Source: a virus. From it: DNA of 64,000 bases. Both the position numbers and the translations under genes were made by a program. Shown piece by piece: positions 4,964 to 61,104 of the stretch. The DNA is taken from the IMG/VR virus record IMGVR_UViG_3300027762_000003, positions 1 to 64,000 of that record, one strand, 5' to 3'. Every line of letters starts with the position of its first letter. Position 1 is the first letter of the stretch. The notes under the pieces were generated by a model. It was not told where the DNA came from and did not search any database. It saw nothing but the letters and a program-made list of their open reading frames with translations.

Positions 4964-6292
4964 TTAACCGATTGAACTCTTAACCAGGTTCCTGAACCGG
5001 GCGAACTCTGCATCAAAGAGTAGTTTGACAACGCCGGTCGGGCCGTTCCGATGCTTGGCGATGATGACTTCAGCGATCGCCCTGTCAGTTGTTTCAGGAT
5101 TGTAATACTCATCCCGATAGAGCATGATGATCAGATCCGCCTCCTGCTCAATACCTCCACTTTCCCGAAGATCCGACATGATGGGGCGCTTGTTTGTTCG
5201 GGATTCTACGGCTCGACTTAGTTGGGATAGTGCGATGATGGGGACATTCAATTCTCTGGCTAATCCTTTTAGTTGCCGGGTAATTTTAGACAACTCCTGA
5301 ACCCTGTTATCGCTCCCACCTTCCATTAGCTGTAGGTAGTCGATTATGACCAGACCAATATCGCCCTTTTCAGCCTTTAGCTGACGTAGCTGGCTCTTCA
5401 TTTGATTAACGGTAACGTTGGGTGAATCCTCAATACAGATAGGTAATTCAGCAAGTCTAGTATGGGCGTTAATGATCTCCTCCCACTCGTTTTCCGTTAT
5501 CCGTCCCGATTTGATTCGAGTCCCTTCTATTTGGGTCTCGTTGGAAAGTAAGCGAAGCGCTAGTTGCTCCTTGCTCATCTCTAGGGAGAAGATTGCGACA
5601 ACTTGCTCCTCTGCGTAGGCTGAGACGCTACGGGCGATCGACATTGCGAAGGCGGTCTTGCCCATTGACGGACGACCAGCGAGAATAATCAAATCCCCCC
5701 TCTGGAAGCCTGCGGTCATTGCGTCAAGATCGTAGAATCCACAGGGAATTCCTGGGGATATCTGATGAGTTGCTCTAGCTTGCATCTCTTGGTAAGTGCG
5801 GGATAGAGTATCCTCTAGCCACTCAAACCCTGTACGCTTTTGCTCTTGGGCAATATCAAAGATTGCCCCTTGAGATTTTTCCAGAACCTCTGAAGCTGGC
5901 ATTGAAGTATCATAGCCGTACCCGTTAATGCGGTGGGATGCAGTGATAACCTGACGGCGGAGGTATTTATCCATGACAAGCTTGGCGTACTCATCAATAT
6001 TAACCGCGTGAACCGTTGTGTTGATGAGGTGGAGTATTTTATTTGCTCCTCCAATCTTTTCTAGATTGTGATTGTCCTCCAGCTCGGTTCTCACGGTCAT
6101 GAAATCCACTGGAATATCTTGTGCCCATAGTTTGAGCGCTGCCAGGTAAATAATTTTATGTGCTTGTACGCTGAATGATTCCGGGTCTAGGGTGTCGGCA
6201 ATGCGCCCGATCGCCTCCCTATCCATCAGCACGCCACCTAGGATTGCCTCTTCCGCTTCAAGATTGTGTGGGGGGAGTTGTTCTTTCATCAT
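4964..6292 (-). CDS. dnaB: Replicative DNA helicase DnaB
   Basis: LPPHNLEAEEAILG N-terminus, AGRPSMGKT Walker A, FSLEM, IIDYLQL, LSQLSR, SDLRESGGIEQEAD, IIAKHRNGPTG. Confidence 0.97.
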   Translation of the reverse strand: MMKEQLPPHNLEAEEAILGGVLMDREAIGRIADTLDPESFSVQAHKIIYLAALKLWAQDIPVDFMTVRTELEDNHNLEKIGGANKILHLINTTVHAVNIDEYAKLVMDKYLRRQVITASHRINGYGYDTSMPASEVLEKSQGAIFDIAQEQKRTGFEWLEDTLSRTYQEMQARATHQISPGIPCGFYDLDAMTAGFQRGDLIILAGRPSMGKTAFAMSIARSVSAYAEEQVVAIFSLEMSKEQLALRLLSNETQIEGTRIKSGRITENEWEEIINAHTRLAELPICIEDSPNVTVNQMKSQLRQLKAEKGDIGLVIIDYLQLMEGGSDNRVQELSKITRQLKGLARELNVPIIALSQLSRAVESRTNKRPIMSDLRESGGIEQEADLIIMLYRDEYYNPETTDRAIAEVIIAKHRNGPTGVVKLLFDAEFARFRNLVKSSIG

Positions 6293-6303
6293 CTCTGTTT
6301 TGT

Positions 6304-6543
6304 CTAAAAATAAGATTGTCGCTCTGATCGACACAAAGGGTGGCTTGCAAAATATAGGGAGCCAAGCGTGTCAACAATGTACTCGGTCGATTCATTTGTC
6401 CGGACTTTGAACCGGATTGGAGTGTACCAGCCTAATTGCCCCTTGAGAGAAGCGTATGTAAAACAAGCTGTCCTGCTGTGAATCTTGACCGCTTTAATTC
6501 CAGACTCGCTGGTGTATTCCTTTCCAATTTCAAATCTTTTCAT
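6304..6543 (-). CDS. Hypothetical protein
   Basis: 79-aa ORF overlapping the upstream gene in an operon. Confidence 0.5.
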   Translation of the reverse strand: MKRFEIGKEYTSESGIKAVKIHSRTACFTYASLKGQLGWYTPIRFKVRTNESTEYIVDTLGSLYFASHPLCRSERQSYF

Positions 6544-6921: not shown

Positions 6922-7374
6922 TTAGATGTTAATCATTGGGATGATACGACTGCTGTAGTCATGATTGAACTGGTTCCAATATTGCTCTCTCTCGTGAATT
7001 AAGTATTCAGCGATTTGTTTCGTAAACGGGACTGCGTTTACTTCCTTTGCCGCTATTTTTTTTGCAGCGTCAAGAGTTAAAACAGAGAATCCGTGTAACC
7101 TTACAGGATCAATCGCTTTCAAGTCAAAGCAGATCCTGTTTGAGCCATACAAGTAATAGTAAATACCTTCCGGAATTTTATACACAAATGTGTATCCGTC
7201 ATACATCCATCTTCCATCTTTAATTTCTGTTTTTGTTACTCCGATCTGCGATGTCCCTTTTGAGTAAACAAGCCAGAACCCTGGTTCAACTTCAGATTCT
7301 CTAGAGGAAGCTAGACTGGGAATGTGGGAAACAAGCGCCCATCCTCTTTGCGCTGGCGATAATGCTTTAATCAT
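6922..7374 (-). CDS. Hypothetical protein
   Basis: 150-aa ORF with ATGA overlap to the upstream MTase. Confidence 0.6.
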   Translation of the reverse strand: MIKALSPAQRGWALVSHIPSLASSRESEVEPGFWLVYSKGTSQIGVTKTEIKDGRWMYDGYTFVYKIPEGIYYYLYGSNRICFDLKAIDPVRLHGFSVLTLDAAKKIAAKEVNAVPFTKQIAEYLIHEREQYWNQFNHDYSSRIIPMINI

Positions 7375-8036
7375 GACTGGTTCTCCTGTCTATTTTGCTT
7401 TACTTGTACGTTACCAATGTCTTCAAAACTATCTTTAAACCTATCAACATCATCTCCTAAATAAAGGAAATCGTTGTAGTACCGTGGTGATTTTTCTTGA
7501 ATGCCTTCCGGAGAAATAAACGCTATCCGCTTGTAGGCTTCACAGATAGCGGAACACTGAGACTTCCACTTCAGATACCACGCAGCCCCGGTTCGATTAA
7601 GAAGTAGGATCGCGCTCTCTATACGCCCTTGTCGGTAAGAGTAGATAGCTTTTTCGAGGAAGGCTTGTTGGAGATTTCCGTAAGGGGGATTACACCAAAC
7701 TTGCCCTACCCACTGATGGTTTAATCCGTCGGTTTCTTGGGTATAGAATTTCCTGGCTTTTATCCACTCTTGAGCTATTAAGTTGGAAGCTGGATCTGTG
7801 TAAATTCCCCCCATGACCTTCCTGGCTTTCTCGATATATTCAGGAGGTGTGTACCACTCAACGGTCTGCTCCTTTCTCCACCCAATACTATCGGAGATGG
7901 CGGCGATCGCCTCATAGTGCTTTACTACCTTCTCTAATTCGTAGTATCGCGCTAATTCGGATTGAGGAACCGGCGATTGCTCTCGCTCTTTTTTGATGCG
8001 CTTCATCTCATCTAGCGCTTGTCTTTTAGTAATCAT
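7371..8036 (-). CDS. Phage Dam-like DNA N6-adenine methyltransferase
   Basis: EWYTPPEY, TDPAS, DGL, VWCNPPY motifs. Confidence 0.85.
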   Translation of the reverse strand: MITKRQALDEMKRIKKEREQSPVPQSELARYYELEKVVKHYEAIAAISDSIGWRKEQTVEWYTPPEYIEKARKVMGGIYTDPASNLIAQEWIKARKFYTQETDGLNHQWVGQVWCNPPYGNLQQAFLEKAIYSYRQGRIESAILLLNRTGAAWYLKWKSQCSAICEAYKRIAFISPEGIQEKSPRYYNDFLYLGDDVDRFKDSFEDIGNVQVKQNRQENQS

Positions 8037-8045
8037 TCCAAGTAA

Positions 8046-8249
8046 TCATTCCAACTCGCTATCTTTTCCCCAAAAGAGTCTATACAAAATTTCTTGAATT
8101 TCGTTATGTTCCTCTTCATATTTCTCTAGCCGTTCAAACAACTCAGGAGATATGTTAACAGCTGAAGGATTTCCAGGCTTTGCTTCATAGAATTCATAAA
8201 GATACCTTTCTTGTTCGCGCACTTCGATAAATTTAGGCTCTTCAACCAT
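8046..8249 (-). CDS. Hypothetical protein
   Basis: 67-aa ORF with GAGGT SD, coupled in operon. Confidence 0.5.
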   Translation of the reverse strand: MVEEPKFIEVREQERYLYEFYEAKPGNPSAVNISPELFERLEKYEEEHNEIQEILYRLFWGKDSELE

Positions 8250-9021
8250 AGTTAGCTACCTCTAGAAACTCTTGCAAAAAGACCGCCCCCAGTTGGGGGA
8301 CTATGGCGTTTCCGTAGCCACGCAGGGCATCTAATCGCCCCACTCTTTGGGATAGCCCATCAACCATCGGATGAATTCCGGGTTTAATGGGGCGGGCTTT
8401 CCCGTCGGAACACCTAACCCACTCTGGATTATCCCAGATATCAAACCTCGAATCTTTCTCAGCCCTACAGAATCCCCGGCTCCACTGTTTCCGTTCTGGG
8501 GTGGGGTTAGTGATGTGGGTGTTGGCCACAGCGCCCCAGTACAGCCGGTCGCGCTTATGGTAGGCTCCGACAGATGAAGCCGGTAGAGCGATCGCCGCGA
8601 CGGCGTAACCAATTCCTTCCAAGTCGCGTGCCACTTTATCCCACCATTTAAGGGCAGTATTTGAAACAACCTGCTCTCCAACGAGGATTGGAGGGCGACA
8701 CTGTTCAACGAGATTAAAGAAGACTGGCCACAGGTGGCGACGGTCGGTGAATCCCCTTTGGTAGCCTGCCCTTGAAAACGGCTGGCAAGGGAGACTTGCC
8801 GTCCAGATGGGGAAGTTTTGAGGGATGCCTGCCATATCGCAAGAGAGTGGCCATCCTCCAATACCACAGAAGAAGTGGCATTGAGTAAATTCAATAAGCT
8901 GAGTTGACGTGACTTCATTGATGTCAGCCTCCAGGACTTTGCCTGGAGGTAGTGTTTTATTTTGTGTGAGCAATCGCATCTTTTCACAGCATTTGTGGGA
9001 GCGATCGGTATAGAGAATCAT
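8242..9021 (-). CDS. DNA (cytosine-5)-methyltransferase, alpha chain (motifs I-VIII and X)
   Basis: FFCGIGG (I), SLPCQPFS (IV), GEQV (VI), HKRDRLYW (VIII), LRGYGNAIVP (X); motif IX absent. Confidence 0.9.
   Translation of the reverse strand: MILYTDRSHKCCEKMRLLTQNKTLPPGKVLEADINEVTSTQLIEFTQCHFFCGIGGWPLSCDMAGIPQNFPIWTASLPCQPFSRAGYQRGFTDRRHLWPVFFNLVEQCRPPILVGEQVVSNTALKWWDKVARDLEGIGYAVAAIALPASSVGAYHKRDRLYWGAVANTHITNPTPERKQWSRGFCRAEKDSRFDIWDNPEWVRCSDGKARPIKPGIHPMVDGLSQRVGRLDALRGYGNAIVPQLGAVFLQEFLEVANYG
8331..8918 (-). CDS. Overlapping-frame beta subunit of the C5 methyltransferase (motif IX); start uncertain
   Basis: Alternative frame open over about 650 nt inside the MTase, ending LWPTPT...LNPEFIRWLMGYPKEW. 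Confidence 0.7.
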   Translation of the reverse strand: MKSRQLSLLNLLNATSSVVLEDGHSLAIWQASLKTSPSGRQVSLASRFQGQATKGDSPTVATCGQSSLISLNSVALQSSLESRLFQILPLNGGIKWHATWKELVTPSRRSLYRLHLSEPTISATGCTGALWPTPTSLTPPQNGNSGAGDSVGLRKIRGLISGIIQSGLGVPTGKPAPLNPEFIRWLMGYPKEWGD

Positions 9022-9054
9022 TTTTTGGTTTTGGATTCCTGTTTAGGTGTCGCT

Positions 9055-9891
9055 TTAGCCATGATCAAATAATTCCACATGATCAAATAATTCCAATTGT
9101 TTACTACGTTTACCAGTACGATCACACACCCAAAGAACTTCTACTCGCTTCTCCCTGTGGTGTTGACTGGCGCTTGTATATGTCGGGATTTCGATTCTCT
9201 CTTGAGCGCTTAAAGGTTCAACGTTTTGCGCGTAGTTACTCAAGATATAGGATGACTTGCACTGATCAAGCTCAAAACATAATGATGCCCAATCCTGTGC
9301 CGTGTATCCCTTGTAGTGTCCTTGGTCATATCCAGGATAAGGTGGATCGATATAGATCAGTGTCTCCGGTGAGTCCCACCGTTTAATACAGTCAATCGCA
9401 TCACGACAAGCGATCGCCACATTACTTAATCTCTTCAGACATTGACCTAATACACTCTTCTTATTTGCCCAAGTATGGGATTGGAATTTACCCCTAACTG
9501 AGGTCTTCCACCCACCGTTTAGATCATGGGAAAAAGACTGCATAACTGCGACATAGTAAGCCCATGCTCGTTCCAGATCGGCGTATAATCCTGGATCTTC
9601 GAGAATCTCCTTAGCTCGACGGTGTTCAGCTTCTGAATAGGGGGTAAGCTCAATTAATCGCTCTAGTTCGGTAGGGAGCGATCGCGCTACTCTATACAGG
9701 TTAATCAAATCAGAAGATTTATCGTTGATAATCTCCTGTTTTGATGGTTTCTTTCTAAAGAAAACCGCCCCACCGCCAAAGAACGGTTCAAGATAGTTGA
9801 CATGGGGTATCGAGTCAACTATAGGGAGGATGTGGTGTGCAATTCTTTGCTTTCCTCCGTAGTAGGTTATCAATGGGGTCATCGGGGTCAT
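9055..9891 (-). CDS. D12-class DNA N6-adenine methyltransferase
   Basis: YYGGKQ, EPFFGGGAV, IIND, YIDPPY. Confidence 0.92.
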   Translation of the reverse strand: MTPMTPLITYYGGKQRIAHHILPIVDSIPHVNYLEPFFGGGAVFFRKKPSKQEIINDKSSDLINLYRVARSLPTELERLIELTPYSEAEHRRAKEILEDPGLYADLERAWAYYVAVMQSFSHDLNGGWKTSVRGKFQSHTWANKKSVLGQCLKRLSNVAIACRDAIDCIKRWDSPETLIYIDPPYPGYDQGHYKGYTAQDWASLCFELDQCKSSYILSNYAQNVEPLSAQERIEIPTYTSASQHHREKRVEVLWVCDRTGKRSKQLELFDHVELFDHG

Positions 9892-33207: not shown

Positions 33208-34287
33208 TTAATAATCCCTAATCTGAACCGGCATAATCAACACAAGACGATCACCGTCCTTCACGACCGCCGGGGTATTCGGTTGATTGACGTGGAGAGT
33301 AAACTCACCATCAGGAAGGGCGGACACAAGGTAGGGGTGATGGATAGCGATTCTGAACGGCTCATCAATAATGGATGCAACGACTTCCTCGCTCGCAGAT
33401 CCGGTATCCCCGCTACATGAGAATGACTCAACTTTTGCGAGAACGCCTTCCCCAAATTGGAGCGCGACATTCCTGGTATCACCACAAGTGATTGCTACCC
33501 GATCTAGAGCCGCTTTCAACTCACTCCCATTCATGGTGATTTCATGCTTGAATTCAGCCGGTATAAGCCTAAGTGCATCAGGATACTGCCCAGAAGGGAT
33601 GCGTGCTGCAATTCGGGTATCTCCAGTGATAAATAAAATCTGAGAATCATCAAACTTGAATTCGATATTCCCATCAGCCGCCACCTTGAGAATGGCAACC
33701 GCCGATCCGGGAATAGTAACCATGAAATCATCAGACTTCAATTCTCCAGATGAGTAGCCCAAGCGCTTTCCGTCTGTGGCGATCGCGTGGAGAATATTGT
33801 CGGCAATCGAAACATTTACCCCGGTCAAAACCTGCTTCGTTTCATCTTTGCTGGCATAGCGCGAAGCGAACCGAAGATGTTCTATGACTGACTCAGGGAG
33901 CGTGTAGGCACGGTCGCTTTCGATTTCGGGGAATTCCGGAAAATCGTCAGCAGCGATCGCCTTGTATTGAAACTTACCTTTACTCCACTTAATCAAGACA
34001 TTGAACTCATCATCAATGTCTAGGCTGATTTCCTGATTGCGGTCGATTTTGCTAACGACTTGCTTTAGGAAATCGTAGGGGATACAGAATTCTCCAGAGT
34101 CGGAACTTTCCACTGGAATCTTGGTGGCGATCGCCGTCTTCAGATCTGATCCCGTCACCAGTAAGGAGTCCTCTGTTAATACCATCTTGACGTTAAGTAG
34201 CATGGTATTGAATGGTCGGGAATCGATTGTGCGCCCAACAATATCAAGAGCGCTTTTTAGGACTGCAACATTACAACTAAATTTCAT
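33208..34287 (-). CDS. dnaN: DNA polymerase III beta sliding clamp
   Basis: GSDLK, DDFPEFP, ASKDETKQVLTGV, ATDGKRL, GQYPD, LIMPVQIR. Confidence 0.93.
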   Translation of the reverse strand: MKFSCNVAVLKSALDIVGRTIDSRPFNTMLLNVKMVLTEDSLLVTGSDLKTAIATKIPVESSDSGEFCIPYDFLKQVVSKIDRNQEISLDIDDEFNVLIKWSKGKFQYKAIAADDFPEFPEIESDRAYTLPESVIEHLRFASRYASKDETKQVLTGVNVSIADNILHAIATDGKRLGYSSGELKSDDFMVTIPGSAVAILKVAADGNIEFKFDDSQILFITGDTRIAARIPSGQYPDALRLIPAEFKHEITMNGSELKAALDRVAITCGDTRNVALQFGEGVLAKVESFSCSGDTGSASEEVVASIIDEPFRIAIHHPYLVSALPDGEFTLHVNQPNTPAVVKDGDRLVLIMPVQIRDY

Positions 34288-34617: not shown

Positions 34618-34997
34618 TTATTTAATCAATGCAGAAAAATCTATCAAATCATCCAACTCTTTAATTATTGGATATTTACTTGAGAGTCTGTTTAATTTCG
34701 TAGTGGCTTTTTCATCACTACAGACAATAATAAGCCTCTCAATTACCCACCCTTAGCTTCCACAAAGAGAGACGGAACGGTTTCTCCTTTTTTGATGACC
34801 GCAAAATCACATCGCCATACAAGACTACGATTGGGCTTAACATAGGAATTACTTGGGCAAAGCGGGATTCTATATTGCTGGTCTATCCGGTGTTCGCTTT
34901 CTGGGAAATGGTCTAACAGATGGTAGTAAACGCAAGCTTCAAAATTTGAGTCAAACTTCTTACCCTCCAAATAAGTTACATTGCTTCGATACCTCAT
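34618..34997 (-). pseudogene. Frameshifted PD-(D/E)xK endonuclease (DUF1064-like)
   Basis: KKFDSNFEA...CDF...VEAKGG then stop at 34743; another frame continues VIERLIIVC...LIK* to 34618. Confidence 0.6.
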
Positions 34998-35560
34998 TTG
35001 ATCTTCTCCATGTGTGAATTAACTTTCTCTGCCCAACTTGGATCGGTGGCGTAAACTTCTCCAATTAGTTTAAGGCTTTCCTCTGGATTTGTCTTAGTAA
35101 ATTCAGTTGTTCTACCATGTTCCTTGAGGATGTTCTCTACCGTTTGAGCAAACAGAATATCGCTCTTGTCGTCTGCAAATCCCAAGTCCTGCACAACCAT
35201 TTGCCCGCCATAATATTCGGTGGTGGTGGTGGTGACATCGTTACCCTTGATTCCCCAATGATTGTTCTCGCCAATTACTGCTGCGCCGTTACCTGTTTCG
35301 TGAGAGGCGATCGCCAATGTAATTGCAGGGTTGATGCCGTAATCTTTCTCCAGATCTTGCGCGATCGGGTAGAGGGATTTCTGATATTCATCAAGGTTAG
35401 TCAGTGTTGTTAGCTGTTGCTCTCCTGGATTAGATAGCGGTATCCACCAATGGGATTGCCCTAGGTTGCCCAGGATGAGATGAATAGATAAAAGCCCGGC
35501 TGCCATTAGGCTAATTTTGGCTAGGAGCTGTAGCTGTGGGTCGTGGCTCGTTTGTTCCAT
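34994..35560 (-). CDS. Membrane-anchored glucosaminidase/muramidase (FlgJ/GH73-like)
   Basis: AITLAIASHETG, NNHWGIKG, TTEY, YATDPSW; N-terminal TM helix. Confidence 0.85.
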   Translation of the reverse strand: MEQTSHDPQLQLLAKISLMAAGLLSIHLILGNLGQSHWWIPLSNPGEQQLTTLTNLDEYQKSLYPIAQDLEKDYGINPAITLAIASHETGNGAAVIGENNHWGIKGNDVTTTTTEYYGGQMVVQDLGFADDKSDILFAQTVENILKEHGRTTEFTKTNPEESLKLIGEVYATDPSWAEKVNSHMEKIK

Positions 35561-35909
35561 AGATAGTGTCTAGTCCTAGTTCGTAGGCTCTTGCGTTTGC
35601 AAATTCTCTCGCTGATTCGATTGAGTTAAATTCAATGGGGTAAATGCTATACCTAATCCCTTCAAGGGTGCAGGTTTGCCCAATTGGGGGAGTCAGGGCG
35701 ATCGCCACATAATAAGTATTTCCCTTAGCTCTGGTTGGGCATGTGTCACCAGGTTGGTTATTTTTACCCTTGATGTTGACATCAAAATCCCCAATAAATG
35801 TGTGGTCGAATTCATCCGGGATGATTCTGTATTCGCCTTTGGGAGTGGCGAGCGTGCAACTGGATATTAGTCCAGTGATTAAAGTCAAAAACACGAGCTT
35901 GAGTTTCAT
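35511..35909 (-). CDS. Lipoprotein
   Basis: MKLKLVFLTLITGLISSC lipobox-like signal. Confidence 0.65.
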   Translation of the reverse strand: MKLKLVFLTLITGLISSCTLATPKGEYRIIPDEFDHTFIGDFDVNIKGKNNQPGDTCPTRAKGNTYYVAIALTPPIGQTCTLEGIRYSIYPIEFNSIESAREFANARAYELGLDTIYGTNEPRPTATAPSQN

Positions 35910-36586
35910 GGCTTGAGTACCTTCTCTAAAAGTTCTCTGGATGGAATGGGGCGATCGCCGTTCTTGTCCTTGAGCCTCAAGTCCAAATGGGGGCCGGTTC
36001 CTGCATCCCCACTTTCGGCGATCTTCTGTCCCTTCTTGGCAGCGCCTGGGGTGCAGTCATGTAAGTGGAGAAATTGAACGGTGTACGTGCCTTCTGGGCT
36101 AGGGAACTCAGCCACTAATCCGGCTAATCCGCCATAATTGGGACATTGCACCGTAGTGTCAAAAGGTGCGTAAAGTGGAGTGCCGGTTGGCGTTCCAACA
36201 TCGATCGCTGCATGATAAGAGGAGCAGCCGCTACAGGGTGAGACTCTTGGCCCATAGCCAGAGGTCACGGGATGTCCAGCAATGGAGTCACCGGGAACTA
36301 GGCTTATGTTTGAAATTAGTTGAGCGTCTTGAATAGCTCCAGAGGTAGGGATGTTTGCCGTGCTTTTAGTCTTGCCGGGTTTACCTAATTGAGATTCTAG
36401 AAAAGATTGCCAGGGTTTCATTGTTTCATCCCATGTTTTATTTAAGTTTGGAAGGATTTGGATAGCCACAGCACCACAAGTTATAATGGTTGTGATCAGG
36501 AGAACACTGGTTTTTCTATTCGAGATCGTGGGACTTTTATTGCTGCGTTGAACTTCTTGCAGGTGGGGGGTGGTGATGCCCCCCAT
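35906..36586 (-). CDS. Membrane-anchored M23 peptidase
   Basis: TSGYGPR, HAAIDVG (HxxxD), GTPLYAP, FLHL, SGDAGTGPHL; TM helix. Confidence 0.88.
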   Translation of the reverse strand: MGGITTPHLQEVQRSNKSPTISNRKTSVLLITTIITCGAVAIQILPNLNKTWDETMKPWQSFLESQLGKPGKTKSTANIPTSGAIQDAQLISNISLVPGDSIAGHPVTSGYGPRVSPCSGCSSYHAAIDVGTPTGTPLYAPFDTTVQCPNYGGLAGLVAEFPSPEGTYTVQFLHLHDCTPGAAKKGQKIAESGDAGTGPHLDLRLKDKNGDRPIPSRELLEKVLKP

Positions 36587-36605
36587 TTTTACTTTGAGCT
36601 GGAAA

Positions 36606-36737
36606 TCAAGAGCCACCTTTAATAATCTCCACAATATTTGGGATATAGGAGCGTCGATAGCCTGGTGCGTCAAAACTCAAGGCGACTATCGCAAAAGCGC
36701 AGCAGGCTATAATTATTCCTTTGCTTATCGACCCCAT
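36606..36737 (-). CDS. 43-aa single-TM protein (MGSISKGIIIACCAFAIVALSF...), not in ORF track
   Basis: Fills the operon gap and overlaps the upstream gene. Confidence 0.45.
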   Translation of the reverse strand: MGSISKGIIIACCAFAIVALSFDAPGYRRSYIPNIVEIIKGGS

Positions 36738-36979
36738 GGCATTTGCACCGATGTAGGACGAATGGGACTTGTGTTGTTAGCGGCTTGATTGGCTCCGATA
36801 TTTCCGATCCAATAAGCCGCGCCAACAAAGAAGCAAATAACGATAACGGAAGTGCCTACGACTTGCGACATAACCGAGAATCCACCGGCCACCGTATCGG
36901 TAACGGTGTGTGCCACATCAATCGTTGTTTTACGTTTCGCTAGACTTCCACCACGGGAAACCATATCAATATCTGCCAT
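36725..36979 (-). CDS. Small membrane protein
   Basis: VVGTSVIVICFFVGAAYWI TM; AGGAG SD. Confidence 0.6.
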   Translation of the reverse strand: MADIDMVSRGGSLAKRKTTIDVAHTVTDTVAGGFSVMSQVVGTSVIVICFFVGAAYWIGNIGANQAANNTSPIRPTSVQMPWGR

Positions 36980-36981
36980 GA

Positions 36982-38223
36982 TTATGCTCCTTTCTTCTTG
37001 AATTCGATTACATTACTTTTTGGCTGGGGATTGGATGGCGCTTGTACCGATAAATCAGGGGTAGCGGTCACGAAAGGATCGTCCCCTTCTCTGCAAATAA
37101 TCGCCGCATATTTACCAAGCGCAATCCTTTCTCTGTGTAGTTTTTTCCTGTCCCAATGGTCAGGAATAATGGTGTTCGTATCGTTAATTAAGTTGCCCAA
37201 CAAGTACCAATGCATCTGCATGGTTGCGCTGGAATCAAGCTCGCACATTCCTTTTTTGAGGGAGTGCAACCCTAGGAAAACATCGACGTGAAACTTACGG
37301 AATCCATTCTGGATATAGGTAATCATTTCAGCCATTTCCTTGCCCGCACCAGTCCGGGTGATAAACCCTTGATATTCATCGATCACTACCAATAGCGGGG
37401 GTTCTTTTTTTAGGATCGCTTCTTCTCTTCTTAGCCCTTCCTGGTAAACCTTGTTGAACGCGGATAAAGCTTTGAACGGGTCTCTGACTACAATTTGGCC
37501 ATGCTCATCTTCTGAACATCCAGACAACCAGGACTCTTCATCGGGGTCATAGTGGGGGTCAATGATTAGAAGCTTTGTATCCGGCCTCGCTTGCAACCGC
37601 TTGCTGAGTAAGTGTCTCAGTGCGGATGACTTCCCCGAACCACGGGAACCCGCGATGATTGCCGATCCATTATGAAAAATCTTCTCGATTTCACTGAAGG
37701 GTTCAGATTCCTCATTGAATCCCATCCCATCAGCCCTGGCCGGGAATGAGGGTAACTCTTCCTCCTCTTCTTCGTCCCACAAGTCAATCGGGCTTGGGGA
37801 TATAGGTTGTGGACGAGACCCAGCCGTAAATGGTGGGGGACTGCTGAAGATGTTGAACGAGCGCTCGGTGGTATCTGTTGGCTCTTCTTCTGCGCTTCTT
37901 GGTTCCGATGTCTGCCATGATTCTTCTTCCTCTTTGTCTAGTTCGTAATCGTCGATTCCGGTCACGGAATCGTCTATGGGTTCATTAGTTTCTTTGATTT
38001 GCTTCTTGTTCGGGGTGTAGGCATATAGCCCGCCTATCGCTGCCCCGCCGATCATCATCATTCCCAATCCCTTGAAGAGTGGGTGCGCGGGCGGCTGCAC
38101 AGCTTCCTGGATGGATGAGTACGGGGTGGAGTTAAGCTCAATGGGTGGCTGGTAGCTGAAGGTGATCGCCCCACCTATCGCCAGGAGTGTCGATGCTGCC
38201 AGTACAGCCGGATTAAAAGGCAT
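36982..38223 (-). CDS. Membrane-anchored FtsK/HerA-superfamily P-loop ATPase
   Basis: Two N-terminal TM helices, acidic linker, GSRGSGKS Walker A, LLIIDPH, LLVVIDE Walker B, RKFHV. Confidence 0.8.
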   Translation of the reverse strand: MPFNPAVLAASTLLAIGGAITFSYQPPIELNSTPYSSIQEAVQPPAHPLFKGLGMMMIGGAAIGGLYAYTPNKKQIKETNEPIDDSVTGIDDYELDKEEEESWQTSEPRSAEEEPTDTTERSFNIFSSPPPFTAGSRPQPISPSPIDLWDEEEEEELPSFPARADGMGFNEESEPFSEIEKIFHNGSAIIAGSRGSGKSSALRHLLSKRLQARPDTKLLIIDPHYDPDEESWLSGCSEDEHGQIVVRDPFKALSAFNKVYQEGLRREEAILKKEPPLLVVIDEYQGFITRTGAGKEMAEMITYIQNGFRKFHVDVFLGLHSLKKGMCELDSSATMQMHWYLLGNLINDTNTIIPDHWDRKKLHRERIALGKYAAIICREGDDPFVTATPDLSVQAPSNPQPKSNVIEFKKKGA

Positions 38224-38939
38224 CAGTGTACACCTCCATCCATCGTGATTGTTATGGTGGGATCGATTGAGCGTTGAACATCAAAAGCAATATCAGAGCG
38301 ATTGTTGGCACGTTCGAGATCTCGGTATCCTTCCAGAACTTTCCGGCTATTCGCCAACTCCTTTAACCACACTCCGTCTGTATCACCGCCTAAGTCTCTG
38401 TCAAAAACTAGCGCGGTATGGGCCGCCTGATGTTTGACAATTGCAAAAGCTTTTAATTCCTCATCGGAAACTGCTAATTCTACTCTCCTGCCTTCACGGT
38501 TGACATAGATGATCTTGGCTTGAGTGCCCCCAACCGTTGCATCATTAGCTAAGTCTTGGGCATTGGCGATCGCCCCTAGGATGGCTTGATGTTCAGGAAC
38601 TCGATACAGGGGAGACTCTGGATTTGTGGACGCATCTTTAACCCGATCCTTCATGCTTGACGCAACCGAGCTAATGATTTGCTGGTGGATACCCATTTGG
38701 GTTGGACTTGGTGTGCGGTCATTATCAAAGTAATCCTTTAGGTAGGTGTTCCATGCTTGCTGGAGATTGTCGGATGTCTGCGCCTGCTCTTGAGTAATCT
38801 GCGGAATAACTGCACCGTAAGGAACTTGGGAGCGGAAGGGTTGCATCGCTACGATCAGAATAGATGCAAAAAGGATGGAGGCGGCGATCGAGATTTGTTG
38901 TAAATTGAATTTGAACCGTGCAAGGGTAAAAGCTTCCAT
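38223..38939 (-). CDS. Single-TM protein
   Basis: ISIAASILFASILIVAM TM; TGATG coupling to the ATPase; GGAGG SD. Confidence 0.7.
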   Translation of the reverse strand: MEAFTLARFKFNLQQISIAASILFASILIVAMQPFRSQVPYGAVIPQITQEQAQTSDNLQQAWNTYLKDYFDNDRTPSPTQMGIHQQIISSVASSMKDRVKDASTNPESPLYRVPEHQAILGAIANAQDLANDATVGGTQAKIIYVNREGRRVELAVSDEELKAFAIVKHQAAHTALVFDRDLGGDTDGVWLKELANSRKVLEGYRDLERANNRSDIAFDVQRSIDPTITITMDGGVH

Positions 38940-38941
38940 GA

Positions 38942-39316
38942 TTAGAATCCTCCAAAAGGAACGACGGCGGGGGTAACGGGTTGCTCGTAGGGGTAGGCGC
39001 TAATCCCCTCCCGAATGAGTGAGCCAATATATAAAGCAGATCCGATCGCTACCCAAGTGGAGGTCACGTGAACCACCGCCGCTATGAACGGCATTGGTAG
39101 CGCCCAAGCAATGATAGGGATGAGTGGGGAAATAATCATAAGGTCGATGATGCGATCCATTTTTCTGATTCCTGTCGTTATGTTGTTTATTTCTCTCTCC
39201 TGAAGCCAATGAACGCGCCTAGCGCTGCTACGGCTAAGGCTGAGAAAAGAGGGGAAAGGGTGGGGTGGATTGCGTACCCGACAAATCCACCGATACCGGA
39301 GATGGGTGCGGCACAA
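38942..39316 (-). CDS. Multi-TM small membrane protein (start uncertain)
   Basis: Hydrophobic C-terminal half. Confidence 0.5.
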   Translation of the reverse strand: MCRTHLRYRWICRVRNPPHPFPSFLSLSRSSARRVHWLQEREINNITTGIRKMDRIIDLMIISPLIPIIAWALPMPFIAAVVHVTSTWVAIGSALYIGSLIREGISAYPYEQPVTPAVVPFGGF

Positions 39317-39344
39317 AGTAAAACTTGGCGCTGCTCTTTCCAGG

Positions 39345-39890
39345 CTAGTTGCTGCTGCTGAGATACGAACTCGGCAAGCAGGGCTTCACTGGTTGGGGTA
39401 TCGATCCAGCGATGACTGCCATCGTCTTCTCTACCGGGCGCAATCCCAACTCCCCCAGTGCTTGGTCTAAAGGGCTTTCGTAAATCTCCCTCATTGCTTG
39501 CATCCGTGATTCGATTAATCGCTGCCCCAACTCTTCCAGGGATTGAGCTTCACCTGCAACATAAGCGCGCAAGGTTTCAGTCCCGGTTAGAACCCCTGCT
39601 GTCGCTCCCCTTTGAATGCCCTGGCTACGAAGCACGGAAAAGATATCACGGTGGGCGCGATCACCACTCGAAAGGTTGGATATAGTTTCCTGTTCTGGAG
39701 TCAGGTCGCCGCCCTTCACTTGTTGGCGGTTCGCATTCTGTGCAGCCTTCTCTTTTGCTGATAATAATTGCTCAACAATTTCATCGGGAATCTCATTGAC
39801 CCCATAAAGCGTTTTGTCGATAGCTGACAGCATTTTGTCAAGCTGGGGATTGGTCACGTTGATAAGTTGTAATACTTCTGCTCGTTTCAT
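39345..39890 (-). CDS. Hypothetical protein, possible N-terminal HTH
   Basis: ATGA coupling; MKRAEVLQLINVTNPQLDKML. Confidence 0.6.
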   Translation of the reverse strand: MKRAEVLQLINVTNPQLDKMLSAIDKTLYGVNEIPDEIVEQLLSAKEKAAQNANRQQVKGGDLTPEQETISNLSSGDRAHRDIFSVLRSQGIQRGATAGVLTGTETLRAYVAGEAQSLEELGQRLIESRMQAMREIYESPLDQALGELGLRPVEKTMAVIAGSIPQPVKPCLPSSYLSSSN

Positions 39891-40297
39891 TTGTTTTTCC
39901 TGAAGTTAAAGTGAATGATGGTTTGACTTTCTCTCTGTCCGTTCAGCCGCTTGTTGTATTGTGCCAAGCTGAATTTCTCTGGTTCGGTAATTAATGCTGT
40001 TTTGATTTCCTCTCGTTTCAACCTCTTCTTGCCTGGAGACCTACCAGGCTCGGTATAGGGTGGGGAGGTGAAAATTTTTAGGAGCCAGATCACGTAATCA
40101 TCGAGTGGTGACCTGGGATTAACAACAGCTTCATCGCAAAGAGCGGAGATTGTTGTTAATAAATAATGCAAAGAAGACGTTCGATAAATACCTAAATCAT
40201 CGGCTATTTGATGACGGGTCAACGTTCGGTTGGACAATGTAATCACTTTGTTTTTACTGTGTTTAATTCCTCTGTGATGTCTATGCTCATGTGACAA
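39887..40297 (-). CDS. Hypothetical basic protein, possible HTH
   Basis: LTRHQIADDLGIYRTS. Confidence 0.55.
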   Translation of the reverse strand: MSHEHRHHRGIKHSKNKVITLSNRTLTRHQIADDLGIYRTSSLHYLLTTISALCDEAVVNPRSPLDDYVIWLLKIFTSPPYTEPGRSPGKKRLKREEIKTALITEPEKFSLAQYNKRLNGQRESQTIIHFNFRKNK

Positions 40298-40431
40298 AAT
40301 CGTTTTATTTGTTTCTGTCGCATGAGCTTAAGTTAGCCCATATAAATCGAGGGTTCAATGGTTGTGTAGCGACTTGCTCGCGTGGGTCGTCACATGAGCG
40401 ATTGCACAGTGCTTCCGGGGAATATGGCACT

Positions 40432-40459
40432 AAAAAAGCCAAGTCTCTAAACTTGGCTT
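40432..40459 (-). terminator. Intrinsic terminator
   Basis: AAGCCAAGT-CTCTAA-ACTTGGCTT with A-run on +. Confidence 0.65.
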
Positions 40460-55262: not shown

Positions 55263-55637
55263 ATGGCAAAAAAATCTAGGTTCACCAACACTCAGAAGAG
55301 AACTATCTTAGTTGAGTCTGTCGCTCTTGGTGATAGTGCTACGGCAAAAAAATATAATATAGACCCTAAGACACTGTTTCGATGGCGAAAAGAGATAGAT
55401 CAAGAGGAGTTAGATAGAGCCATAGAAGAGGCTGGCCCATTTTCGACAGAATTCAACGAAACCCTCAAACTCTCCACTCAATTCCTGAATGAACTCCTGA
55501 AGAAGGCGATCGTTAATATCCAGAACATGAATGACCAAGGGGAGTCCAGGGCGATCGCCGCCTACCATGGATTATTTAAGGCGTGTGCCGATCTTAATAT
55601 CCTGAAAGAGTTAGAACGAGACTCAGAGGATGATTAG
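55263..55637 (+). CDS. Probable terminase small subunit
   Basis: HTH (DSATAKKYNIDPKTLFRWRK), overlaps the terminase large subunit. Confidence 0.65.
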   Translation: MAKKSRFTNTQKRTILVESVALGDSATAKKYNIDPKTLFRWRKEIDQEELDRAIEEAGPFSTEFNETLKLSTQFLNELLKKAIVNIQNMNDQGESRAIAAYHGLFKACADLNILKELERDSEDD

Positions 55638-57120
55638 CATACAAGCCAGAATTAATGAAAAGCTTAATCGGAGGCGACAAAAACGCAGAGAAGGCAGGAG
55701 GTCACCACTAATTAAGCTTGAGCAAGCGATCTCCGACATCGATGGGCCAGTTGATTTCACACGCCAGATTCTTGGCATCAAGCTCTACCCCAAACAAGAA
55801 GAACTCTTAGCCGCGATCTGGCAACCTGGAGTTACCCACGTGGTGTTGTCACTCGGCAGACGTTCCGGTAAGACCACCATGGCGGCTATTTGTGCGGTTT
55901 ATGCTGCAATCTGCTTGGGCGATCGCTACCGTAAAGCGCTTGGTCTACGCTCCACGTTTAATATCCTCTGTATCGCCAACAAGGAGGCACAATCCAAAGT
56001 CGCGCTAGGGATGATTAGGGACTTAATTCAGAAAGCGCCCCTACTCAAACCCTTAATCAAGCGCCAAGCAATGGAAACCCTAGAACTAACCAACGGGGCA
56101 ATCTTTACGGCATCCCCCGCCTCATCTAGGGGTATCCGTGGGGAAGCATCACCCCTAATTATTTTCGATGAGTTGGCTCACTCCCTCGACACATCCGGAA
56201 ACGCAGCCGGTGACCAACTCTATCAAGCGGTGGCTCCTGGCGCTGCTCAGTTCGGGAAGTACGCCAAGATTCTTATGCTTTCTACCCCATGGATTCAAGG
56301 GGGAATTTTTTGGGACTTCTATAACCAAGGGCAATCCCCCGATTACCCGTCCACGTTCTCTATTTCCTTGCCAACATGGGAAGTTAACCCCCATCTACCC
56401 TATGATGGGGAATTCCTCAAAGAAGAGCGCGATCGCGACCCATGGTCATTTAACATCGAGTACGGCGCTAACTTTGCCTCACCCGTAGGCGCTTTTCTCT
56501 CGTCTGATGACGTGGAAGCGTGCATACTCAGAGAACATGCCAACCCCACCCCAACGAAGTCAGACCACTACTACACCCTTTCTCTTGACCCTGCTAAAGG
56601 TGGGCGGGATGAGTATGTAGCCTGCATCCTCCACTGGGAAAAGGATGAGTGCATAGTCGATCGCTGGTATGTATTTGAGCCATCCGTCCAGGATGGTAAG
56701 CGGAAACTCGTAAGCGTGGAAGAAGTAGAGAATTGGATTATCGAGAGCGATCGCCGCTACCGGTTCCACAAGATTATCCTCGACCAGTACAACAGTCAAA
56801 GCACTATACAGAGCCTAAAGAAGCGCGGGTTACCTTGCCGTGAACTTCATTGGTCAGCCAAGTCGGTGACGGAAGCCTACACCAAACTAAGAAACCTGGT
56901 CATCTCTGGCAACCTAAACCTGTACCGGCACAAGAAGGCGATCGAACAGTTGAAGGGATTAATTGTGAGGTACAACAGCGTAGGCACAATGTCTATTAGC
57001 GGCGGTGACGGTGCGGGGGTTGACGACTACTGCGCTGCTCTTGCCGGCGCTGTGTTGGTGAGTACGCCACCCAGACCGCCAGGGCGATCGGGTACGTTCT
57101 CGATGAGTATGTGGGGGTGA
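55630..57120 (+). CDS. terL: Terminase large subunit
   Basis: LYPKQ, GRRSGKT, IRG, IIFDELAH, LSTP, EYGANF, SLDPA, LDQY, DDYCAALA. Confidence 0.93.
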   Translation: MISIQARINEKLNRRRQKRREGRRSPLIKLEQAISDIDGPVDFTRQILGIKLYPKQEELLAAIWQPGVTHVVLSLGRRSGKTTMAAICAVYAAICLGDRYRKALGLRSTFNILCIANKEAQSKVALGMIRDLIQKAPLLKPLIKRQAMETLELTNGAIFTASPASSRGIRGEASPLIIFDELAHSLDTSGNAAGDQLYQAVAPGAAQFGKYAKILMLSTPWIQGGIFWDFYNQGQSPDYPSTFSISLPTWEVNPHLPYDGEFLKEERDRDPWSFNIEYGANFASPVGAFLSSDDVEACILREHANPTPTKSDHYYTLSLDPAKGGRDEYVACILHWEKDECIVDRWYVFEPSVQDGKRKLVSVEEVENWIIESDRRYRFHKIILDQYNSQSTIQSLKKRGLPCRELHWSAKSVTEAYTKLRNLVISGNLNLYRHKKAIEQLKGLIVRYNSVGTMSISGGDGAGVDDYCAALAGAVLVSTPPRPPGRSGTFSMSMWG

Positions 57121-60597: not shown

Positions 60598-61104
60598 TCA
60601 CTTCCCAACGAAGTGAACCCAACAACCCCCGTCTGGCATACAGGCTTCCTTGATTAGGGCGTAGGAGTAGTGCAGGTTTTTCCCTGATGCCTTAGTATCA
60701 TAGCCGTCAGCCCACCACTCCCCCCACGGGTCGTTTACAAAGAACCCCCTTTCGTCAAAACCCTTGACCACAATGATATGTCCAGAACTGGTGAAGTATC
60801 CGTGGATAATACAAGGTTTTTTTGCTATTAAATGGTCTTTAATATCTTTAATCCGAGCGTCACTACGAAATTCATCTTTGTGTCCATAGTCTTTAATTAA
60901 AGAAGCTAAATCATGGGGACTGTGACGGTCTAGTCCATGGTCAAGGCAGTATCGGTAAAGCTCGTCTTCTAGTTGCTCATTGGGGTTTGCTGGTTTAACC
61001 CCATAGTAAAGCAAACACATTGCAACGCTCGACACATTACACGATCCGGATGGATTATATTCATTGTCTCGCTGTGATCTGTAGGGAACATCTAGATTAA
61101 TCAT
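60598..61104 (-). CDS. C39-like peptidase, candidate endolysin
   Basis: VPYRSQRDN...SCNVSSVAM, GHIIVVKG, VNDPWG. Confidence 0.85.
   Translation of the reverse strand: MINLDVPYRSQRDNEYNPSGSCNVSSVAMCLLYYGVKPANPNEQLEDELYRYCLDHGLDRHSPHDLASLIKDYGHKDEFRSDARIKDIKDHLIAKKPCIIHGYFTSSGHIIVVKGFDERGFFVNDPWGEWWADGYDTKASGKNLHYSYALIKEACMPDGGCWVHFVGK

Follow-up and report, generated by a model that had tools for sequence, protein, structure and literature searches.

The operon described here lies on the minus strand of the tailed-phage genome IMGVR_UViG_3300027762_000003 (IMG/VR), of which bases 1-64000 were analysed as one stretch (the window). Its ten-gene core (34994-40297) encodes a membrane-anchored ATPase of the FtsK/HerA superfamily, several further membrane proteins, a lipoprotein and two membrane-anchored cell wall hydrolases (Table 1). 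Cassettes of the same architecture are present on cyanobacterial plasmids and chromosomes, and the operon is best read, from gene content and order, as the phage-borne copy of a module that forms part of the backbone of mobile elements found in filamentous cyanobacteria. That it encodes a conjugation-like or TraB-like DNA-transfer machine is a tentative reading, to which we give a little less than an even chance. The more specific proposal, that a tailed phage passes its genome into neighbouring cells of a filament without virions, via a captured, plasmid-type, relaxase-free DNA translocation machine with a single ATPase, appears rather unlikely to us.

The ATPase consists of two N-terminal helices, an acidic disordered linker of 107 aa, a RecA-like core (residues 171-391) and a conserved tail of about 30 aa. 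The membrane part comprises a transmembrane (TM) segment at residues 5-24 and a glycine-rich helix at about residues 48-67, both predicted from hydropathy; the helix is also seen in the AlphaFold2 (AF2) model, which is good in the core and poor outside it. The Walker A (GSRGSGKS at 192) and Walker B (LVVIDE at 278) motifs are intact. Among 60 family members G197, K198, E283, R309 and K310 are invariant and D282 is kept in at least 90%. A HMMER scan of 1.8 billion representatives recovered 355 relatives, mostly of 400-540 aa, and the neighbours of the ATPase in the Atlas were cyanobacterial or viral. The best structural match of the core was TcpA of the Clostridium perfringens plasmid pCW3 (6o1x, Z score 14.5, root-mean-square deviation 3.5 over 196 residues), followed by the FtsK motor (14.0) and EccC/EssC (13.5) and, lower down, by HerA (12.4), VirB4 (12.3) and TrwB (11.5); the Foldseek ranking agreed with this order. 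The likeness to TrwB is at the fold level only, and the ATPase gave no match to the T4SS-DNA_transf model (VirD4/TraG, PF02534). The protein thus belongs to the FtsK/HerA superfamily, as the earlier note on this DNA had proposed for a two-TM ATPase, and forms part of an unnamed clade. A position nearer to the FtsK/TcpA branch than to the HerA branch is favoured by the modelled fold. It is the structure that carries this placement, because the sequence profile of the family prefers HerA proteins of the defence type (E 1e-9 to 1e-7) to FtsK or TcpA; the profile match to TcpA was not significant (E 0.4). The C-terminal residues (...SNVIEFKKKGA; 36982-37080) are near-invariant in homologues that are 45-74% identical overall, which suggests that the tail may be a docking site for a partner. 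A complex prediction of the ATPase with the bitopic protein g238 scored 0.00 and was counted neither way.

The order small TM protein, bitopic protein, two-TM ATPase, small TM proteins and TM-anchored wall hydrolase was found in the window and in six other loci (L004, L017, L018, L019, and L023 and L024, which are plasmids of Oscillatoria acuminata PCC 6304). The ATPases of the compared loci affiliate with the family at E values from 1e-51 to 1e-19. L017-L019, all from cyanobacterial genomes, end in a TM-anchored hydrolase, which is M23+SLT in two of them and M23 alone in one. On the chromosome of a Spirulina metagenome-assembled genome, an actin-like gene is followed by genes for a small polytopic protein, a 260-aa bitopic protein, a 418-aa two-TM ATPase, two small proteins and a TM-anchored NlpC/P60 protein. 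Both Oscillatoria plasmids encode ParM, a small protein, a small TM protein, a bitopic protein of 354-364 aa, the two-TM ATPase, two small TM proteins and a TM-anchored GH108 protein; their blocks adjoin a DUF5906 replicase gene, which lies divergently upstream. An ALP/ParM gene is also located upstream of the ATPase gene in L018 and L020. The bitopic and small TM accessory proteins of the plasmid clade are mutually homologous (E 1e-9 to 1e-12). Protein g238 of the phage occupies the position of the bitopic proteins in the plasmid and chromosomal cassettes, and the accessory proteins of the window correspond to those of other clades by position and topology only.

Throughout these loci the fold of the hydrolase varies (M23, SLT, GH73, NlpC/P60, GH108), and its position and membrane anchor are constant. 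Such an exchange of the hydrolase type with position and anchor kept fits a dedicated wall-opening helper of an envelope machine and speaks against a lysis cassette. The genes form one conserved module, and a chance juxtaposition of an ATPase with a lysis cassette was rejected, since the same block recurs on plasmids and chromosomal islands.

The family profile detected eight carriers among 401 sampled cyanobacterial genomes, all with genomes of 4.1-7.8 Mb. Four of the queries used in tblastn against plasmids found only the two Oscillatoria plasmids, and the queries P0009 and the A-1(L) ATPase found no plasmid match. A search for related loci with the ATPase and the family alignment returned nothing from viral, genome or metagenome contigs, and P0038 likewise returned nothing; PHROGs gave no matches for the neighbour genes in the other loci. 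The two plasmids of the one Oscillatoria strain share the whole block from ParM to GH108, with ATPases 80% identical. MOB-suite classified one of them as mobilizable (MOBP relaxase) and the other (pOSCIL6304.01), which has no relaxase, as non-mobilizable; neither was classified as conjugative and no mating-pair system was assigned. Tools of the CONJscan and MOB-suite type miss the cassette, and if it moves DNA, the scoring of plasmid mobility in cyanobacteria would change.

In phages, the ATPase family was present in 7 of 50,697 records, all of them phages infecting Nostoc, Anabaena or Dolichospermum; blastn of the operon against the same phage records gave no match. The proteins annotated as 'DNA translocase' in phages A-1(L), N-1, YongM, Elbi and Dfl-JY23 belong to the same family (26-29% identity, E down to 8e-12), and the ATPase of the window matches phrog_38189 at 3.7e-20. 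In contrast to the latter, the translocases of the A-1(L) group fall in another clade, are longer (530 aa) and adjoin a 362-aa protein instead of a recognisable hydrolase; small TM proteins precede the ATPase in these phages. On the 58-kb viral contig L007 the ATPase gene has only genes for TM proteins beside it. The accessory proteins of the window have no detectable homologues among those of A-1(L), L007 or Spirulina. In a phylogenetic tree the ATPase of the window grouped with the cellular copies from Roseofilum (Shimodaira-Hasegawa-like approximate likelihood ratio test, 98) and Spirulina (99), and the A-1(L)/YongM group and the other viral contig formed separate supported clades. This implies at least three separate acquisitions of the module by phages. 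The named carriers are without exception filamentous cyanobacteria or phages of filamentous hosts (hosts of the Nostocales phages, Roseofilum, Spirulina, Oscillatoria), in a small sample uncorrected for phylogeny. The link to filamentous cyanobacteria drawn in the earlier note holds to this extent, but the nearest cultured relative of the terminase large subunit (TerL) of the phage infects a unicellular Synechococcus.

The two hydrolases of the phage operon were identified as had been predicted, both above their Pfam cut-offs. The M23 (LytM) protein reached 32.8 bits with PF01551 (cut-off 28.7) and is MepM/ShyA-like. Its HxxxD motif is present (HAAID), but the HxH motif reads HLD, and its catalytic activity is uncertain for this reason. 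Translation may start at TTG 36673 or at ATG 36586. The GH73 protein scored 56.7 bits with PF01832 (cut-off 30.2) and contains both the catalytic-Glu motif SHETGNG and YATD; the nearest NCBIfam model is FlgJ (TIGR02541, 1.4e-7). PHROGs places the M23 and GH73 domains in endolysin families. In two of the cellular cassettes the M23 domains (L018 11596-12357, L019 8105-8899) are aligned without the HxxxD motif region, and these domains may be activators of the non-catalytic LytM type and not peptidases themselves. The AF2 model of g238 was unusable (mean predicted local distance difference test score 39.6), and an Atlas search gave no lead for this protein.

Genes for a conventional transfer apparatus were searched for in the whole 80-kb genome, with control genomes that responded to the relaxase, VirB4, VirD4, integrase and partition models. 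Three relaxase models (PF03432, PF08751 and PF01076, other relaxase families not being searched) and VirB4 (PF03135) gave no match, nor did VirD4/TraG (PF02534) at E <= 0.01. This agrees with the earlier note, which had seen no relaxase or other gene of a type IV secretion system (T4SS), and it removes the objection, raised there, that a T4SS elsewhere on the genome might explain the ATPase as a coupling protein. A canonical T4SS or coupling-protein reading was rejected. The cellular loci L017-L019 contain no open reading frame (ORF) of at least 500 aa within 7.5 kb of the ATPase gene. Models for tyrosine integrases, ALP/ParM, ParA (AAA_31) and ParB were without match in the phage genome, and by these searches a phage-plasmid or plasmid-like prophage lifestyle is not supported. 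A packaging ATPase of the tectivirus type was likewise rejected: TerL, which had been expected to cover packaging, is present together with a portal protein, and no membrane-virus genes were seen.

By analogy, the gene list most resembles the Gram-positive Tcp/ICEBs1 conjugation apparatus minus VirB4, VirB6 and relaxase, and its logic resembles that of the Streptomyces TraB/Spd systems. TcpA of pCW3 shares with the phage ATPase the two N-terminal TM helices in front of an FtsK-like domain. Both the Tcp locus (TcpA, TcpC, TcpD/E, TcpG) and ICEBs1/Tn916 (ConQ/Orf21, CwlT/Orf14) further combine a bitopic protein and small membrane proteins with a dedicated wall hydrolase. TcpG, CwlT and PrgK are dedicated wall-opening hydrolases of transfer machines, and TcpG joins a FlgJ-type glucosaminidase to an NlpC/P60 domain; of these, GH73 is encountered in the phage operon and NlpC/P60 in the Spirulina copy. 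In contrast to Tcp, neither a VirB4-like TcpF nor a VirB6-like TcpH nor a relaxase was found in the phage genome, and homology of the accessory proteins is not detectable. The Tcp-like cassette is, moreover, carried by a tailed phage, and its hosts are cyanobacteria with a diderm envelope.

The TraB/Spd systems of Streptomyces (e.g. of pSVH1), which serve plasmid transfer and intramycelial spreading, likewise rely on one FtsK-like motor, accompanied by several small membrane proteins, and have no relaxase or VirB4; their carriers are mobile elements of multicellular filamentous bacteria whose compartments are divided by cross-walls. The C-terminal winged-helix domain of TraB reads 8-bp clt repeats. 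The phage ATPase, in contrast, ends in its tail of about 30 aa, so that the likeness to TraB put forward in the earlier note does not extend to the DNA-recognition domain; moreover, TraB systems usually lack two anchored hydrolases such as those of the phage operon. PrgK (Enterococcus pCF10) and TraG (pIP501) are likewise wall hydrolases that are anchored in the membrane and serve a transfer machine; these VirB1-like conjugation hydrolases are built from LytM/M23, SLT and CHAP-type domains. Their counterparts in the cyanobacterial cassettes are TM-anchored M23+SLT, M23+GH73, NlpC/P60 or GH108. Unlike PrgK and TraG, the phage operon splits the activities over separate small proteins and has HLD in place of the M23 HxH motif. 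Conjugation of the MPF_C/VirB4 type has been described for cyanobacteria (PMC8600333). A literature search found no description of the present ATPase/hydrolase cassette, and the papers on the ParM-derived CorM/FcmB treat other loci.

On a DNA-transfer reading, the two-TM FtsK/TcpA-like ATPase would form a ring at the cytoplasmic membrane and, together with the bitopic and the small membrane proteins, an ATP-driven conduit. The anchored M23 and GH73 proteins, perhaps with the lipoprotein, would cut peptidoglycan only at the site of the machine. We infer that the likeliest cargo would be the element's own DNA, delivered into an adjacent cell without a virion. Because no relaxase was found, a TraB-like route for double-stranded DNA or a Tcp-like coupling-protein route without VirB4 would come into question. 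The outer membrane is continuous along the cyanobacterial filament and does not enter the septum. It would therefore be enough for a machine to cross the septal wall and two cytoplasmic membranes, and the idea of passage along a filament, put forward in the earlier note, is coherent. If the cassette moves DNA, filamentous cyanobacteria would own a minimal conjugation system. If this also applied to the phage, it would be the first tailed virus with machinery for virion-independent spread from cell to cell, which would matter for the passage of infections along filaments in blooms and mats; the cassette would then rank with T4SS and Streptomyces TraB as a third type of conjugation machinery in bacteria.

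Several observations weigh against transfer of DNA by the phage operon. The ATPase family passes no curated model: Pfam returned only sub-threshold matches of the phage protein to AAA_22, FtsK_SpoIIIE and DUF87, with FtsK_SpoIIIE (PF01580) failing at 19.0 bits against a gathering cut-off of 24, and none of the 60 family members scanned singly exceeded any curated cut-off (FtsK_SpoIIIE at E < 1e-3 in just one of them). The preference of the sequence profile for defence-type HerA and the proximity of the protein-secreting EccC/EssC ATPases, within about one Z unit of the best structural match, point in the same direction. The ATPase has no C-terminal DNA-recognition domain of the TraB or FtsK (gamma) type; in the AF2 model its end comprises about 30 low-confidence residues without a helix bundle. 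In the M23 protein Asp takes the place of a zinc-ligand His, the operon has no recognisable component for the outer membrane, and no homology is detectable between the accessory proteins of the window and those of the plasmid clade. The ATPases of the A-1(L)-type phages and of L007 have no recognisable adjoining hydrolase. The affiliation of TerL points to a phage of a unicellular Synechococcus as nearest cultured relative. Finally, no integrase or partition model was matched; the phage may be purely lytic, and if so there would be little time for transfer.

Among the explanations that compete with DNA transfer, protein export or wall remodelling survives best, although we consider it unlikely. 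Here, a single-domain EssC/EccC-like ATPase would export or position proteins (hydrolases, effectors) with no DNA passing, and the element would benefit from nutrient access, filament fragmentation or wider septal pores through its action on envelope or septal peptidoglycan. Type VII ATPases share with the phage protein FtsK-like domains (Z 13.5, close to TcpA and FtsK) and an anchor of two TM helices, relatives of the ATPase give weak NCBIfam EccCb matches, and neither a DNA-recognition domain nor a relaxase or an oriT was found. The LytM domains without HxxxD in some cassettes, as in regulator-type LytM factors, would fit as well. However, EccC/EssC proteins contain three tandem ATPase domains, as opposed to one here, and operate with WXG100 substrates and EssA/B or EccB/D/E partners; Pfam and NCBIfam recognised none of these nor any other type VII component in the window. 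The plasmid cassettes, moreover, adjoin ParM and replicase genes, the usual place for transfer genes. Even with a cargo other than DNA, the cassette would be an undescribed envelope machine common to phages, plasmids and chromosomal islands, with a motor, a hydrolase pair and a private operator.

A role in segregation appears distinctly improbable. The motor would ensure that the element is retained on either side of the septum as it closes, or would anchor replicating DNA to the membrane, with ParM as partner on plasmids and with the hydrolases adjusting septal wall synthesis. Two different membrane-anchored hydrolases are hard to account for in this way, the phage genome has no ParM, ParA or ParB match and the ATPase lacks the gamma-type domain, despite the FtsK motor being among the top structural matches, the location of the phage operon in a replication block, and ParM/ALP genes directly upstream in five cellular loci (L004, at a sub-threshold score, L018, L020 and both plasmids).

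To lysis or egress we assign a slightly lower probability still. In that case the M23 and GH73 proteins would act as endolysins of the signal-anchor-release type, with the small TM proteins as holins or spanin-like partners and the lipoprotein as outer-membrane spanin; the ATPase would be an unrelated neighbour. The block of ATPase and anchored hydrolase, however, is also carried by plasmids and chromosomal islands, which do not lyse cells; in the phage its genes are coupled to the ATPase gene and lie beside replication rather than structural or late genes, and the GH73 protein is nearest to FlgJ, a machine-insertion hydrolase. What speaks for lysis is the assignment of both hydrolase domains to endolysin families by PHROGs, the presence of a lipoprotein and small TM proteins, which are typical of lysis cassettes, and a single other lysin candidate in the phage, a C39-like peptidase of putative role. 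Superinfection exclusion or defence, in which a HerA-type membrane ATPase with helpers would block or expel DNA of competing phages or plasmids, is very improbable, since the HerA partners Sir2, DUF4297 and nucleases do not adjoin the gene (Pfam, NCBIfam), such systems have no use for anchored wall hydrolases and the structure favours the TcpA/FtsK branch, against which stand the best sequence matches of the family profile, to defence HerA, and a weak NCBIfam match to an 'anti-phage protein' (0.0012).

The features of the operon are listed in Table 1. The minus-strand ORFs and their coordinates, the membrane proteins and the lipoprotein given in the earlier note were borne out by the ORF list and by hydropathy, which shows the TM segments and the lipobox. 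Eleven ORFs lie between 40297 and 34743. Most of the genes are coupled translationally, the stop codon of one overlapping or adjoining the start codon of the next, but a gap of 185 nt separates g181 from the small TM gene. The latter probably starts at ATG 39160 (72 aa) and not with a 124-aa TTG frame, because the conserved block of a diverged relative ends at 39161. This relative (a 7,610-nt contig from another study, about 80-85% nucleotide identity) is collinear over 34750-39161. Its listed indels are mostly triplets or compensating +1/-1 pairs and fall in the genes of the 132-aa lipoprotein, g43, g84a and the ATPase; the frame of g43 is kept by compensating indels at 36683/36687 and that of g84a by a compensating +1/-1 pair. 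The ORFs, the small ones included, are therefore under coding constraint. In g84b, 14 of 21 listed substitutions are at third codon positions; this boundary gene may be part of the downstream replication block rather than of the operon. The 185-nt spacer (39161-39344), unlike the flanking genes, is not conserved in the relative; it could contain an internal promoter, or be a place where a variable element resides.

Table 1 Features of the minus-strand operon and its leader in the window
Feature	Position	Strand	Basis
Intrinsic-terminator hairpin of the upstream gene	40436..40459	-	Terminator scan: 10-bp stem, then T run
Leader with three exact 11-bp boxes GCTCATGYGAC	40285..40399	.	Pattern search, RNA fold
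g136, soluble, 136 aa	39887..40297	-	ORF; no TM; helix-turn-helix-like by eye alone
g181, soluble, 181 aa, no known family; start overlaps g136 stop	39345..39890	-	ORF, no TM
Small polytopic membrane protein, 72 aa from ATG 39160 (probable start)	38942..39160	-	Hydropathy TM segments
g238, bitopic, TM 11-36 and about 200 aa, coupled translationally to ATPase	38223..38939	-	ORF, hydropathy
Two-TM P-loop ATPase, 413 aa	36982..38223	-	ORF, hydropathy, fold
g84a, small membrane protein, TM 30-63	36725..36979	-	Hydropathy
g43, very small membrane protein, TM 1-27	36606..36737	-	Hydropathy
Membrane-anchored M23 (LytM) peptidase, TM 55-77	35906..36673	-	PF01551 8e-8
Lipoprotein, 132 aa, lipobox LISSC, no known family	35511..35909	-	ORF, hydropathy
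Membrane-anchored GH73 N-acetylglucosaminidase, FlgJ-like, TM 11-34	34994..35560	-	PF01832 5e-15
g84b, soluble, 84 aa, coupled, weak DUF1064 match; boundary gene	34743..34997	-	Pfam

The predicted terminator of the upstream gene marks the putative 5' limit of the operon's transcription unit. The leader downstream of it, formerly described as hairpin-rich, is structured (RNA fold z = -4.4), but the folded stretch takes in this terminator, which is part cause of the score, and a set of private, operator-like boxes describes the leader better. Two of the GCTCATGYGAC boxes are in direct orientation on the minus strand (40399-40389 and 40327-40317), and the third (40285-40295) is inverted and overlaps the TTG start of g136. 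With up to one mismatch allowed, the motif has three matches in 64 kb, all in the leader and all exact. A dedicated regulator, perhaps g136, probably uses the boxes as its operator; alternatively, they may serve as a cis site for the machine. Neither g136 nor g181 was assigned to a family by Pfam, PHROG or NCBIfam, and the suggestion that these first two genes encode DNA-binding proteins is not backed by these searches.

The virus record comprises 80,027 bp with direct terminal repeats, is rated complete and originates from a freshwater sediment metagenome. It encodes the gene set of a tailed phage, including DnaB, the DnaG primase, both subunits of ribonucleotide reductase, a sliding clamp, TerL and the portal protein. 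The operon is located immediately upstream of the clamp gene (33208-34287), amid genes for replication and nucleotide metabolism and outside the late/structural block. The closest relatives via TerL and DnaB are cyanophages of unicellular and of filamentous hosts alike: TerL (55630-57120) has its nearest cultured kin in Synechococcus phage S-CBS4 (41% identity) and DnaB (4964-6334) in Planktothrix phage PaV-LD (52% identity), so that the nearest cultured kin differ between the structural and the replication module. A host search via the phage's CRISPR repeat gave no match among the 401 sampled cyanobacterial genomes. The protein encoded at 60598-61104, previously taken for a soluble endolysin, is a papain-like cysteine peptidase (Peptidase_C39_2/C70, E 1e-19) and not a classical lysozyme or amidase. 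Further genes for nucleotide and DNA modification encode ThyX, a dCTP deaminase and DNA methyltransferases; the latter include, in a gene cluster at 7371-9891, a Dam-type enzyme (7371-8036) and a D12-class N6-adenine methyltransferase (9055-9891), both identified by Pfam, and the phage appears heavily committed to DNA modification.

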